From the NCBI GenBank assembly GCA_046045965.1, contig JBJOKS010000005.1, positions 96,001 through 160,000 on the forward strand: a stretch of 64,000 bases of DNA, written 5' to 3'. Position numbers and translations under genes: made by a program. Below the pieces are notes generated by a model that saw nothing but the letters and a program-made list of their open reading frames with translations, did no database searches and was not told the DNA's origin. Positions 10,639 to 17,066 of the stretch are shown here, in pieces. This DNA comes from Cyanobacteriota bacterium. GTDB taxonomy: Bacteria > Cyanobacteriota > Cyanobacteriia > Cyanobacteriales > Nostocaceae. Numbering within the stretch: position 1 is the first letter of the stretch; every line of letters starts with the position of its first letter.

Positions 10639-11148
10639 TTAAGTTTCATCAATATTACCATCTAAAGTTAATTTTGCTTTAGCGGTAATTACTTCTGTAG
10701 GACGGAGAATTTTTTCACCCCACCGAAAACCCCGACGGACTATTTTAGTAATTGTTTGGTCTGGTACATCGGTTCTTTCTTCCCGATCAACTACACGACA
10801 TAAGTTGAAATCTGGTTCATTACCTACCAATTCTATAGGGATAAGTTGACGTTTTCCTAATACGCTGAGAAATTTACGATTAACTGCGGCTACAGACCGG
10901 GGTAAGCGTTCTATAAATTCTGGACTGGGGTGAGGGTTGTTTTCCAGATAGCTTAGTAAAGCGTCTAGAGCATCAGCTACTTCTAAAATTTCTAAAAATA
11001 AATCTTCGGTTTGGGCTGTATTTTGAGTTTCTTTTTCTCTTAAAGATTGCTTGAGGACAACATTTTCTTTTTCGAGAATGCCAAGTTTTTGGATGAGTAA
11101 ATCACGTAATTCTTGGTTGATAAAATAGGTTGGGGGTAAATCAGACAC
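10639..11148 (-). CDS. GrpE-like nucleotide exchange factor
   Basis: N-terminal coiled coil, LEVADALD helix, and C-terminal TITKIVRRGFRWGEKILRPTEV beta domain of GrpE. Confidence 0.85.
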   Translation of the reverse strand: MSDLPPTYFINQELRDLLIQKLGILEKENVVLKQSLREKETQNTAQTEDLFLEILEVADALDALLSYLENNPHPSPEFIERLPRSVAAVNRKFLSVLGKRQLIPIELVGNEPDFNLCRVVDREERTDVPDQTITKIVRRGFRWGEKILRPTEVITAKAKLTLDGNIDET

Positions 11149-11776
11149 GGGAATTCTCTTGAGATAATATTGCTAAGATTTTGTTAGCCCAAGTTTTGAC
11201 TTGGGGATGGGTGTGATTACTCAATGACTGACAAAGAGCGATCGCTCTGTCTAATTGTCCACCCATTTGGTAGGATTTAATCAAACAGATTATAGCTTGC
11301 AGATAATTCTTACTATTGCGTTCTTTACAGCCGTGGCAGTAGTCTTCTAAATATTTTATCGCTTTGGGGTAACGTCCCTCTTTACAAGCTTTAACCCCTT
11401 CGCTAAATAATTGTGATAAGGGGATGGGTAAAGGTTCTCGTTCTAAGTTGGCTTGTTGGGTAGCTTGTGCGATGCCTTCGGCGGGCGTAGCCATCGCATC
11501 ATCTAAACCGTCAAATTCTGATAATAAAGTTAGGGTAGGGGCTGGTTTATTTAATGCTGATAAATCATTGTACTTGAATTCCTTAATAGTTGGCAATATC
11601 GGACGCAAATAGTCAGCAATAATTCTTTCCTTTGACTTCATTAAGCTTTTTTGGGCTTTAGCAATTGCATCTACCGGATATTGTTTGCGCTTCATAGCTA
11701 AAGCCACAGCTTTGGTAATTTCCGCTTTCGATGCGGCTGGAGATACATTTAAAATGTCGTAGGGGTTATGTTCCAT
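11141..11776 (-). CDS. J-like domain protein lacking HPD, with C-terminal TPR
   Basis: NPYDILNVSPAASKAEITKA is J helix I/II; YPV sits where HPD is expected; C-terminal TPR (EGRYPKAIKYLE). Confidence 0.7.
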   Translation of the reverse strand: MEHNPYDILNVSPAASKAEITKAVALAMKRKQYPVDAIAKAQKSLMKSKERIIADYLRPILPTIKEFKYNDLSALNKPAPTLTLLSEFDGLDDAMATPAEGIAQATQQANLEREPLPIPLSQLFSEGVKACKEGRYPKAIKYLEDYCHGCKERNSKNYLQAIICLIKSYQMGGQLDRAIALCQSLSNHTHPQVKTWANKILAILSQENSRV

Positions 11777-11787
11777 AATATTAAAGA

Positions 11788-14374: not shown

Positions 14375-14853
14375 TTATTTTTCTCCTGACAGTTGGGAAT
14401 TTTTAATTTTTCCCCCACATCTAGAAAGTAGTTTGGCCGATTTTCTAGGTGAGAATTAGCTCTGGCTATCAGTCTCCAAGCACTAGCCCTACCGCAGACT
14501 TTTTCAGCAATTAACCCTAAGTTATCTCCCCGTTTTACAATATATATACTTCCCTCAGAAGTATTTGTTTCCGAGCTATTAACTACTGTTGAATTAGGAG
14601 CAGAAATAGCAGCATTATAGTTACCTTTGATGAGGACAAAACTACCTACTGCACCCAGTCCAATACCGATAATGAGCATCAATACAGCTAGGATCAAAGT
14701 CCAGGTGCTAATTTTTTTTGGGACTGCTGTTTTTTCTAAAGGTGCTAACTCTTGAAGTGTGCGAATTAAAGAAAGATCGGTATCACAATTAGGACAAGTT
14801 TTACCTTCTATTTCTTTATATCCACATACAGGACAGTTAAGTTTAGTATTCAT
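14371..14853 (-). CDS. Zn-ribbon / single TM / LysM protein
   Basis: CPVC...CPNC, hydrophobic helix TLILAVLMLIIGIGLGAVGSFVLI, LysM YIVKRGDNLGLIA...IARAN...LDVGEKLKIP. Confidence 0.85.
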   Translation of the reverse strand: MNTKLNCPVCGYKEIEGKTCPNCDTDLSLIRTLQELAPLEKTAVPKKISTWTLILAVLMLIIGIGLGAVGSFVLIKGNYNAAISAPNSTVVNSSETNTSEGSIYIVKRGDNLGLIAEKVCGRASAWRLIARANSHLENRPNYFLDVGEKLKIPNCQEKNK

Positions 14854-17066
14854 CGTGTTAGTCCTGTCACAATGCTATTATTAGGTAAGTTTTGATTCAG
14901 CCAATGTTGTACCTCTGGTTGCAGTTCAGGTAACAAACGTTCAGCTTCGTTGACATCACCATGTTTCATAGCCATCAACAGCCGAGAAAGTTTATCCGAC
15001 AAAGCATTTGCGGCGGTAGGTGCAATAGCTCTAGCTTGTTGAATTGCCAAAATACAAGCTTGAATTACCTGTACTTCATCAGGTAGGTTATTCAGTTCCT
15101 TTCTGGCTTCTTCACTGTGATATTGCATCCCGGAGAGGTTATTGTTGTCCATAGCAGATTGCAATTTTTCAGTTAGTTGTTGCAATTTTTCTTGCTGAGG
15201 TTTAAGAAGCATAAAATCGCAAAGTTTGAGAAGGCGATCGCATTCAGTTACTAAAGACTCAGCTTCTAGCCTATCCGCAGACATATTCATCTGAAATGTT
15301 TTCAAGTTTTCCCCAGCAATATCCCAGAAGTCGCTGCGTTCTTCTCCGGTGATGGGATTAATAATTTGGTTAGCTGACTGCACAACTGGTACTGCTAATT
15401 TGAGTGCTTCTTCTACACCAAAAGCAGTTAAATGTTGATGATTAATTTCCTCTATTGCTGCTTCTAATTCCTGATATATTTTTTCATCAGCACGACCACG
15501 AGAAAAGATACAACTCACTCTCACAGCCGGGTCATTTTTTAAAGCTGCTGTCATTCGTAAATCGTTGTTTTGTTCATCCAACTCTAAATTTACTTGAATT
15601 TCTGTACCAGCTGGATATTTTTCATCTAAACCTAACCACATTTCCCCAATTCTTTCATCATCTTTGACTCCATCTAACTTTTCTTTGACTTTATCGGGGC
15701 TAAAAAATTGAAAATGAATCAATCTTTGTCCTTCAGCCACAGTTTTAAAAGTGTAAACTGGTGTCGTTACTGGCAAAATATCACCCTGACTAATTACTTT
15801 ATATTTGCCATCTGCTAATTGAATAAAATAATCACGGGATACTGTTGTGACTTTATCGGTTTGTCCAGCCGCAACAATTGCTGCACCTTCAGCCACTGCA
15901 TACATAGGACGGGGGTGCAGGATAACTTTATTAGCACCAAAAGCCTGTTGAAGTTGGCGTTGTACCAAAGGAATTTGGGAAGAACCACCCACCAACAGCA
16001 CTACATCCACCATTTCTGGCTGATATTCAGCATATTCTAAAGCTTGACGGCAAATTTGCAGCGATCGCTCTACCAAATCATTGATCATCTGTTCAAATTG
16101 CTGGCGGGTAATTTCTACCTCCATCGGAATTGCAATACCCAATTCGTCTAGTAATTGAGTACCAGGGATAATCCTCGCCACCGTATAACTACTTAATTCA
16201 ACTTTTGCCCTTTCGACTGCAATCTTCAAATCAGCATAAAAGCGTACCCGTTGATAATAGGGCATTTTGGCAATTAAGCCGTCAATATCACTGATTTTTT
16301 CTTGTTGGGAAACTTGCTCTTTCACAAATTTAATCAGCAGGGAGTCGATGTCATCCCCTCCCAACCACAAATCTCCGGCTTTCCCCTGTTCAATAAATGA
16401 AGTTCCACCAGCGGTAATTACTGAAGCGTCAAATGTTCCACCGCCAAAGTCATAAACCAAAATCGTCTTGACATCATCGCTATTAGGCGAAAACCCGTAG
16501 GATATCGCTGCTGCTGTGGGTTCTGGTAGCAGTTCCAAAGGAGTCAGTCCGGCTTTCAGCGCCGCAGTGCGGGTGGCGTAGCGTTGTTTATCATTAAAAT
16601 AGGCGGGGATGGTAATTACAGCTTGGTCAATATTTTCCCCACTTTGACCAAAGGCTTGAAAATACCCTTGGGCATTCTGCACCACTTTTTTGAGAATTTC
16701 CGCCGAAATATCCTCCGGTTGGTATTCTTTACCTCCTAACCACACCGCAATACTGTTATCTGTTCCCTGGGTCGGTTGGGTAATTTTATACCCCCATTCT
16801 GACTTTTGTTTCTGCACTGCTGCGTCACCAAAACCCCTACCCATCAAACGCTTGATGGAAATAATCACATTTTCTGGGTCATGACGTAGCTGGTTGTAAG
16901 CTTGGTCTCCTACCACAAATTTACCCTGGTCTTCAGCAACTACAGAACGGGTCAGTTTCCGGTCTGGGGGTGTATTATCGTTGGCTGTCACTACTTCCAC
17001 TTCTACCAATTTAAAAGCGGCTACGGAGTTAGTAGTTCCTAAATCTATACCAATTGCCTTGACCAT
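14850..17066 (-). CDS. Divergent Hsp70-family protein (not canonical DnaK)
   Basis: GIDLGTTNS, TIPAYF, EPTAAA, YDFGGGTFD, LVGGSSQIP ATPase motifs are present; the DVLLLD linker is absent and the substrate-binding region is divergent. Confidence 0.92.
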   Translation of the reverse strand: MVKAIGIDLGTTNSVAAFKLVEVEVVTANDNTPPDRKLTRSVVAEDQGKFVVGDQAYNQLRHDPENVIISIKRLMGRGFGDAAVQKQKSEWGYKITQPTQGTDNSIAVWLGGKEYQPEDISAEILKKVVQNAQGYFQAFGQSGENIDQAVITIPAYFNDKQRYATRTAALKAGLTPLELLPEPTAAAISYGFSPNSDDVKTILVYDFGGGTFDASVITAGGTSFIEQGKAGDLWLGGDDIDSLLIKFVKEQVSQQEKISDIDGLIAKMPYYQRVRFYADLKIAVERAKVELSSYTVARIIPGTQLLDELGIAIPMEVEITRQQFEQMINDLVERSLQICRQALEYAEYQPEMVDVVLLVGGSSQIPLVQRQLQQAFGANKVILHPRPMYAVAEGAAIVAAGQTDKVTTVSRDYFIQLADGKYKVISQGDILPVTTPVYTFKTVAEGQRLIHFQFFSPDKVKEKLDGVKDDERIGEMWLGLDEKYPAGTEIQVNLELDEQNNDLRMTAALKNDPAVRVSCIFSRGRADEKIYQELEAAIEEINHQHLTAFGVEEALKLAVPVVQSANQIINPITGEERSDFWDIAGENLKTFQMNMSADRLEAESLVTECDRLLKLCDFMLLKPQQEKLQQLTEKLQSAMDNNNLSGMQYHSEEARKELNNLPDEVQVIQACILAIQQARAIAPTAANALSDKLSRLLMAMKHGDVNEAERLLPELQPEVQHWLNQNLPNNSIVTGLTR

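Follow-up and report, generated by a model that had tools for sequence, protein, structure and literature searches.

A Conserved Cyanobacterial Operon Encoding a Divergent Hsp70, an HPD-less J-like Protein and GrpE Together with a Putative Wall-Binding Membrane Protein

Introduction

This work describes a five-gene operon located at positions 10,639 to 17,066 of a 64,000-nucleotide stretch of DNA, here called the window, from a cyanobacterium of the family Nostocaceae (assembly GCA_046045965.1, contig JBJOKS010000005.1, positions 96,001 to 160,000). The genes encode an Hsp70, a membrane protein with a zinc ribbon, a transmembrane (TM) helix and a LysM domain, a large TPR-like protein, a J-like protein without the HPD motif, and a GrpE. 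The reference for such a set is DnaK-DnaJ-GrpE. There, H33 of the J protein contacts L391 of the DnaK linker, P34 contacts P419, D35 contacts both R167 and Q378, and basic J residues contact E206, D211, E217 and D477, while the hydrophobic linker raises the ATPase activity of DnaK 40-fold (PMC8215388). The Hsp70 of the operon shares with DnaK the fold of the nucleotide-binding domain (NBD) and of the beta part of the substrate-binding domain (SBD-beta), the catalytic residues and the hairpin of the GrpE signature, and it is likewise encoded with a J fold and a GrpE. Conversely, it has no VLLLD linker, R167 or Q378, its J-like protein has no HPD, it carries a lid of about 200 residues and an ordered, conserved tail, two further genes accompany it in a fixed manner, and it belongs to a separate clade.

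Two specialised systems invite comparison. HscC of E. coli is encoded beside its own membrane-linked J proteins, DjlB and DjlC, and a role at the plasma membrane has been proposed; however, HscC proteins have 550-580 residues, neither a GrpE signature nor a GrpE partner (PMC8215388), and R167, Q378 and the linker, whereas the protein described here has 738 residues, its own GrpE and a putative wall-binding partner. HscA, in the HscA-HscB-IscU system, serves one dedicated client. The two Hsp70s have in common a shallower peptide pocket and the absence of the cleft salt bridges K55-E267 and R56-E264, and with respect to the client the likeness is confined to an E-L-P stretch (see below). HscA differs in working without GrpE, in keeping the linker and R167, in its place in the isc operon and in its clade. 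In cyanobacteria, DnaK1 and DnaJ3 of Nostoc punctiforme act at the type IV pilus motors and provide a precedent for an Hsp70 devoted to an envelope machine (PMC9239167). The GAP1-N2 DO-GTPase systems of actinobacteria and firmicutes combine Hsp70, GrpE and DnaJ or TPR proteins with zinc ribbons, TM helices and wall-binding domains (PMC7159879). The present operon, in contrast, is cyanobacterial, occurring also in unicellular lineages, and by gene content it holds no GTPase, GAP1, FNIII gene or variable effector.

Pam16/Tim16 likewise has a J fold without HPD and operates at a membrane alongside an Hsp70 and a homologue of GrpE. Its partners are a J protein with HPD and a canonical Hsp70, whereas the operon encodes no HPD protein and its Hsp70 is devoid of the HPD-receiving residues. 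The LysM landmark proteins HubP and FimV combine LysM with TPR and mark a site of the envelope. In the zinc finger-anchored polarity factor ZitP, a cytoplasmic zinc ribbon is the protein-binding handle of a membrane protein, an analogy of architecture only (PMC5182065). None of these proteins is known to be coupled to a private Hsp70 cycle, and all are likened here by architecture, not by sequence.

The Hsp70 described here belongs to a conserved, apparently unstudied subfamily with its own operon, which resembles the specialised systems HscA/HscB and HscC/DjlBC and belongs to none of them. As had been expected, full-text literature searches found no published characterization; most subscription journals and the bioRxiv supplements lie outside their coverage, and a brief mention is possible. 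The available part of PMC11019930 makes no mention of LysM or TPR, and that of a preprint on All4144 names all4473 only as a GrpE paralogue. The reading preferred here, with a probability of about one half, is that the five genes serve one dedicated ATP cycle, insulated from DnaK and DnaJ, which assembles and releases a wall-tethered complex at the inner face of the cytoplasmic membrane.

The Hsp70 Subfamily

Membership of the Hsp70 superfamily is evident from the actin-like NBD residues and the beta-sandwich SBD, with D8, K70, E171, D194, T199 and D201 kept in 80-83 of 83 copies. The window copy also exceeds the Pfam cut-off for HSP70 (PF00012, 305.9 bits). It does not behave as a canonical DnaK, reaching 288.5 bits against the 822.55 of the equivalog TIGR02350, nor as an HscA, with 251 against 709 bits for TIGR01991, no N-terminal extension and no isc genes among the flanks inspected; its length, its GrpE-signature hairpin and the co-encoded GrpE set it apart from the HscC type. 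A quick tree was built from 59 sequences chosen from 94, namely 48 family members, DnaK, HscA and HscC of E. coli and a further eight Hsp70-like proteins encoded in this genome. All family members fall into one clade (Shimodaira-Hasegawa-like approximate likelihood ratio test, 100) on a long stem of 2.89 changes per column, apart from housekeeping DnaK, as originally predicted, and also from HscA and HscC. Both trees of this work are quick trees, and the Hsp70 family tree has few outgroups.

Residues were counted in 83 non-identical family Hsp70s and are given in E. coli DnaK numbering. Arg is found at R167 in none of them and Glu in 76 (E178 in the window copy); Q378 is kept in one and is Val in 81 (V398 in the window copy); E206 and E217 are acidic in none. 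The linker span from Q378 to I401 is 18 residues long in 82 of the 83 and has no hydrophobic LLL, as compared with 24 residues in E. coli DnaK and the four DnaK-type proteins of this genome and 26 in HscA and HscC. Residues of catalysis and of the substrate signal are kept, K70 in 81 copies and E171, D194, T199, D201, P143, D148 and L484 in all. The hairpin of the GrpE signature, deleted in HscA and HscC, is present. R261, which we take to be a residue of the GrpE surface, is Asp or Glu in every copy, and this change would fit an altered GrpE surface. The peptide pocket is bulkier, as in HscA, through V436I (78/83), I438F (76/83) and V440F (80/83).

The predicted model of the Hsp70 (predicted local distance difference test, pLDDT, 88; predicted template modelling score, pTM, 0.81) has the NBD and SBD-beta docked, with Z of about 49-50 and a root-mean-square deviation of 2.1-2.4 Å over about 485 residues against docked BiP and DnaK. 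The lid, about 200 residues long, takes a position unlike that in these structures. A tail motif is found in 74 of the 83 proteins, and in the model the last residues are ordered (pLDDT 93) and form a short strand. In one structural alignment, model residue 738 falls on residue 549 of 7kzu, a chain of 552 residues in which a substrate peptide follows DnaK after residue 541; with two further entries of this construct the alignment ended earlier. This hints that, in the model, the conserved tail may lie in the peptide site. The tail is also kept at loci where the neighbouring gene does not overlap it, and its conservation is therefore no by-product of that overlap. It may alternatively be a TPR ligand of the EEVD kind, whereas the model places it, ordered, within the Hsp70 itself.

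In a different reading, which is considered improbable, the Hsp70 would be a nucleotide-gated structural switch whose domains are permanently docked, with the J-like protein as a tether or brake, as in the precedent of Pam16, and GrpE as a timer. A linker six residues short and free of the hydrophobics that stimulate DnaK would suit such a switch, and so would the docked model with its different lid position and a tail that, by the model, may fill the pocket. On the other side, the invariant residues of hydrolysis and of the signal (P143, D148, L484) and the retention of GrpE, whose gene lies beside the J-like gene at 61 of 80 loci, argue for a running cycle, and the docked state is a frequent output of AlphaFold for Hsp70s.

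Outside the window, the genome also holds a cluster of three short lid-less Hsp70s of 510, 537 and 494 residues (L022:3283-11194, G000:C1). A 375-residue GrpE-domain protein between lid-less Hsp70s and a 651-residue protein with an InlB B-repeat-like domain belong to the same cluster.

The J-like Protein and GrpE

The homology of the fourth protein to J domains was claimed from the outset and is borne out by hhalign, in which 53 columns of the family profile align with DnaJ of E. coli (E 1.1e-5, probability 81.7). The ten-residue gap of this alignment falls on the HPD loop. The Pfam DnaJ cut-off of 27.8 bits is approached by the best family member (27.1) and missed by the window copy (17.2). 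The J fold was located by pattern in 71 of 74 proteins and not in three; HPD occurs in none of the 71, in keeping with the prediction of an HPD-less protein, and H-P without a directly following D is present in 10. Short forms of up to 160 residues, 25 of the 74, are devoid of the TPR-like C-terminal domain, and a search aimed at them yielded four fragments only. In the window copy this domain (window:11141-11400) is similar to a domain found at the N-terminus of three further proteins of the genome, one of them a 665-residue HExxH protein.

At the level of the alignments, both sides of the J switch are shown to be gone, that is, HPD in the J fold and the HPD-receiving residues and the linker in the Hsp70. 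The HPD motif and the hydrophobic linker are usually treated as universal for Hsp70 activation, and here a whole subfamily has dropped both. As it has nevertheless an ATPase site, a J fold and a GrpE, the subfamily offers a natural test of other ways of switching an Hsp70 and of the insulation of paralogous chaperone circuits.

In-frame fusions of Hsp70 and J-like protein were found twice, in L106 and L035. In the former, from Snowella sp. (L106:5864-8875), the fusion has 833 residues and intact ATPase motifs, grpE follows directly, and the locus has neither the lysM nor the TPR gene; it represents a minimal form, handy for biochemistry. Prediction of the complex between the Hsp70 and residues 1-105 of the J-like protein gave 0.59 (runs 0.68, 0.00 and 0.59), as compared with 0.00 for the best of three controls; at least 90% of the contacts agree between runs, and the pLDDT of the partner is at least 55. 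In the calibration of this score, 116 of 157 solved pairs attained the mark, as did 2 of 215 mismatched ones; at 0.60 or less it was attained by only 18 of the 157 solved pairs and by both mismatches. The fusions and, weakly, the predicted complex support a pairing of the two proteins.

The private GrpE was predicted correctly. PF01025 is matched with 62.5 bits (cut-off 25.8), and the gene stands beside that of the J-like protein at 61 of 80 loci. The protein is below all NCBIfam GrpE equivalog cut-offs and is one of three GrpE genes of this genome; for N. punctiforme a single annotated GrpE has been reported (PMC9239167). With regard to the proposed "full private chaperone cycle", the co-encoding of Hsp70, J-like protein and GrpE stands, whereas the cycle itself is an inference, and two genomes keep four genes without the Hsp70.

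The Membrane Protein, the TPR Solenoid and the Envelope

Of 87 copies of the second protein, 85 have a zinc ribbon, followed by the TM helix, and 73 of these 85 have LysM; in the window copy LysM (PF01476) scores 24.3 bits (cut-off 20.9). Exactly two Cys follow the TM helix in 66 of the 73 LysM-bearing copies, in two different arrangements, and such pairs fit a periplasmic disulphide. The protein is predicted from its sequence to lie N-in/C-out, with LysM beyond the TM helix. A TM helix is carried by 5 of the 74 J-like proteins, three of which add two Cys-containing SPOR-like repeats (L064:9131-10354, L086:4658-6046 and L087:11416-12885); one scores 29.9 bits (cut-off 21) and the other two 17.3 and 18.5. 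SPOR is a peptidoglycan-binding domain. No related SPOR-like repeat was found in the genome of the window. An N-terminal TM-like stretch is seen in 8 of 75 TPR proteins. The envelope link of the original prediction is sustained by the TM-LysM architecture with its Cys pairs and by the J-TM-SPOR-like fusions. The fixed link to wall-binding domains, LysM and in some lineages SPOR-like, suggests an envelope function new for cyanobacteria.

An E-L-P stretch behind the zinc ribbon occurs in 57 of 85 copies and recalls the IscU peptide ELPPVKI that is bound by HscA; this possible analogy is only a lead. The TPR protein is modelled as an all-helical solenoid (pLDDT 91, pTM 0.60). A fold search returned generic solenoids only, with TM-scores, normalised by query, of 0.18 at most, the Pfam family TPR_2 stays below its cut-off in the window copy (25.9 against 27 bits), and no catalytic motif was found in the protein. 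The Atlas cluster label "Peptidase M" was set aside as an automatic name without Pfam support.

Distribution and History

Conservation of the gene order was confirmed. In a scan of named genomes 127 relatives were found and 80 loci kept, of which 61 have hsp70, the gene of the zinc ribbon/TM/LysM protein, the TPR gene, the J-like gene and grpE complete and in this order, some with an open reading frame (ORF) split by a frameshift; 15 are cut by contig ends and 4 are rearranged. The median gaps are -4, -4, 13 and -8 bp, the third (TPR to J) measured over 62 loci. The locus sets of this work overlap, and identical sequences were merged before residues and domains were counted in the family. Among the first loci from relatives all 11 had the five genes in order. 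The next 18 comprised 12 with the standard order, the Hsp70-J fusion duplicate L035, the swapped L038, two without Hsp70 (L028 and L037), one cut by a contig end and one decayed. In L038 the first two genes are exchanged, and its TPR protein matches P0262, labelled Candidatus Sericytochromatia. In G130 the Hsp70 is missing and the TPR gene is cut as well, which was ascribed to a gap in the assembly. A distant relationship of the TPR protein extends to homologues such as P0101, P0122 and P0131.

The spread is patchy, as predicted. Of 41 related genomes, 12 have the TPR protein, and its profile matched in 28 of 301 genomes of the phylum, with three candidates scored per genome; three of these matches are short and generic and one is a decayed copy. 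By their genome titles the carriers are heterocyst-forming, filamentous and unicellular cyanobacteria; one more, titled only as a bacterium, clusters with cyanobacterial copies in the Hsp70 tree. A general role in heterocyst or septal differentiation, one of the roles suggested at first, is ruled out because unicellular lineages carry the operon. Judged on the Hsp70 protein alone, Nostoc sp. PCC 7120 has an ortholog (BAB76176.1), which opens the system to direct tests in a genetic model. A metagenome scan aimed at non-cyanobacterial copies gave six loci, all HIP1-rich and of cyanobacterial type; no match to the operon proteins was found in plasmids and phages, and no relative of the TPR protein or of the C-terminal part of the Hsp70 in viral contigs. 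Inside the Hsp70 clade the copies mostly track taxonomy, but two Dolichospermum copies lie among unicellular lineages. Forcing together the ten copies of heterocyst formers, a group defined after inspection of the tree, was rejected by the approximately unbiased (AU) test (p 2.3e-5). The picture drawn from these sequences is one of apparently old residence, many losses and at least one probable replacement by transfer.

No sixth gene recurs across lineages among 361 flanking ORFs (202 clusters), and no enzyme or DNA-binding gene belongs to the operon beyond its five genes. The neighbours lepB and hemW, noted at the outset, do flank the operon here; as a general setting they do not hold, the flanks varying across the family and these genes being confined to this lineage. 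In G323 the operon is decaying in place (L040:5400-10700), with many stops and the same lepB flank as in the window. In Spirulina (L027:11878-15872 and L083) the genes immediately downstream of grpE encode viperin and a MotA/OmpA pair similar to Zorya A/B, and in the Sericytochromatia-labelled locus a DUF559-like ORF and an STK-OB defence candidate adjoin the operon (L038:7181-9843).

It seems unlikely that the operon is a conflict or defence system of the GAP1-N2 kind, in which LysM would sense a breach of the wall by phage, predator or parasite and the Hsp70 cycle would be a threshold switch. A defensive role had been suggested, and no positive evidence for it was obtained. PADLOC 2.0 matched none of the five proteins, an outcome that a new defence system would share. 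The flank test covered two ORFs per side; 195 cluster representatives were scanned at a threshold of 1e-8, seven long or masked ones being left out, and 23 matched, as compared with 15 of 145 control ORFs drawn from 202 in 15 arbitrary stretches. Generic families (kinases, TnpB, AAA, methyltransferases) account for many matches in the flanks and in the controls alike. Defence genes of full length seem somewhat commoner in the flanks (viperin, Cas7, SspC/BrxC, STK-OB and two methylases), in small numbers and among the nearest genes only. Such neighbours at a few loci, some of them Zorya-like, would be expected under defence, as would the patchy spread, the decay in G323 and the scattered copies of heterocyst formers, and the membrane-linked systems reported by Kaur et al. 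(2020; PMC7159879) combine Hsp70, GrpE and DnaJ/TPR with zinc ribbons and domains that bind the wall. The lack of a GTPase, GAP1 or variable effector gene in a nearly fixed gene content, the host-like GC and HIP1 content and the absence of matches in plasmids, phages and viral contigs speak against it.

Finally, a spare general stress chaperone set, that is, a diverged dnaK-dnaJ-grpE operon with two hitch-hiking genes, would account for the presence of Hsp70, J-like protein and GrpE and for RNA contigs over the locus (DNA carry-over being possible), but it is highly improbable given a score far under the DnaK cut-off (288 against 822 bits), a clade of its own, the lack of CIRCE, four DnaK-type genes elsewhere in the genome, and LysM and TPR genes that accompany the Hsp70 even in the Sericytochromatia-labelled locus.

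Proposed Mechanism

Under the preferred reading of a dedicated, insulated ATP cycle, the LysM protein, N-in/C-out, would grip peptidoglycan through its putative binding domain and mark a site. Its cytoplasmic zinc ribbon would serve as the meeting point of the TPR solenoid and the J-like protein. The J-like protein may then dock on its own Hsp70 via a surface that would have to be rebuilt, because both halves of the HPD contact are gone. With ATP hydrolysis the Hsp70 would close on a single narrow client, not on unfolded proteins in general; speculative candidates are the TPR protein and the E-L-P stretch located behind the zinc ribbon. The tail of the Hsp70 could plug its own pocket at rest, and the private GrpE would reset the cycle. 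As the most likely output, the state of the wall would alter a host complex associated with the envelope. A bolder version is regarded as doubtful: an orthogonal Hsp70/J-like pair triggered by neither HPD nor linker chemistry, in which the C-terminal tail restrains the ATPase until a receptor bound to peptidoglycan activates it at the membrane, the chaperone being a cell-wall signal transducer older than the split between photosynthetic cyanobacteria and Sericytochromatia.

Several points weigh against a dedicated cycle. Complex formation, activity, client and physiological role are inferred. HPD changes abolish stimulation in every system tested, and that review has no case of an HPD-less J protein stimulating an Hsp70 (PMC8215388); the J-like protein may therefore not trigger hydrolysis at all. 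On the side of the Hsp70, J contacts are retained at P419 (83/83) and D477 (acidic in 80, Glu in 78). The loss of R167 and Q378 is not unique, since the three tandem lid-less Hsp70s of this genome have neither, and alone it is no proof of co-evolution. As to the pairing, the L035 fusion stems from a duplicate whose ATPase motifs are damaged; in the complex prediction one run of three gave 0.00, and the passing score may reflect DnaK-J complexes already solved. LysM is absent from 12 of the 85 zinc-ribbon proteins, and the window copy reads E-L-A-P in place of E-L-P.

Incomplete sets weigh in the same direction. G178, 99% complete, keeps an intact lysM-TPR pair (L028:7748-12121), with J and grpE on another contig (L124:7117-8269), and has no Hsp70. 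The gene was deleted there, as a 22-codon remnant remains; above it, at the former place of the Hsp70, stands an ORF which from its sequence we take to be Ser/Thr kinase-like. The presence of J and grpE elsewhere in the genome of G178 led to a revision of the initial view that lysM-TPR stands alone there as a module. G193 keeps four genes, the family Hsp70 not being found, and the genome of L106, whose completeness is not stated, has Hsp70-J and GrpE, the family TPR protein not being found. Such sets may reflect recent decay or separable modules.

The Locus and Its Setting

The five co-oriented ORFs, the two ATGA overlaps (14850-53 and 14371-74) and the 8-bp overlap (11141-48) are real, and the sole gap is indeed repeat DNA, made of a TCAGGAG tandem run and a dispersed element of about 100 bp with 27 genome matches of at least 50 nt, itself included (Table 1).

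Table 1. Positions of the operon genes and of selected features within the window.
Feature	Positions	Strand	Remark
Hsp70, 738 aa	14850..17066	-	intact ATPase site, J-docking surface lost, enlarged helical lid ~526-723
E178 codon (position of DnaK R167)	16533..16535	-	Hsp70 family alignment
Shortened interdomain linker region, residues 398-415 (V398 = DnaK Q378)	15822..15875	-	
Conserved Hsp70 tail, residues 732-738, candidate plug of own peptide pocket	14853..14873	-	motif and model hint
Membrane protein, 160 aa	14371..14853	-	Zn ribbon 7-23, TM ~52-75, LysM 104-153
All-helical TPR-like solenoid, 817 aa, family-specific	11921..14374	-	candidate scaffold or client
Intergenic repeat insertion, 144 bp	11777..11920	no strand	outside the system proper
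J-like protein, 211 aa	11141..11776	-	J fold 3-55 without HPD loop, conserved ~40-aa tail, optional TPR-like C-terminal domain
Short GrpE, 169 aa	10639..11148	-	GTG start

The HIP1 content is normal, as first noted, with 6 sites in 6.4 kb (0.93/kb against 0.51/kb genome-wide), and the GC content of the operon is 38.7%, that of the genome 38.1%. The reported absence of CIRCE extends to the whole contig when up to two mismatches per arm are allowed. Promoter and terminator scans of the operon gave results at or below chance. Contigs of the RNA runs X1 and X2 cover 29/30 and 21/30 bins, DNA carry-over being possible; transcription or co-transcription was set aside as a conclusion, the coverage including the flanks.

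A DnaJ/TPR gene with HPD, on the strand of the operon and 2 kb downstream of it (window:7724-8656), is linked to the operon in this lineage only. Elsewhere in the window, a low-GC patch (0.29-0.35) at window:71-6404 holds ORFs that presumably represent an antitoxin, a cytosine methyltransferase with neighbours and a PIN toxin. A tandem pair of mutually similar genes with a 4-bp overlap (window:21051-23584) is taken to be of the vWA type, and an ORF of 7,988 residues together with another of at least 1,363 (window:35882-63994) presumably encodes polyketide synthases.

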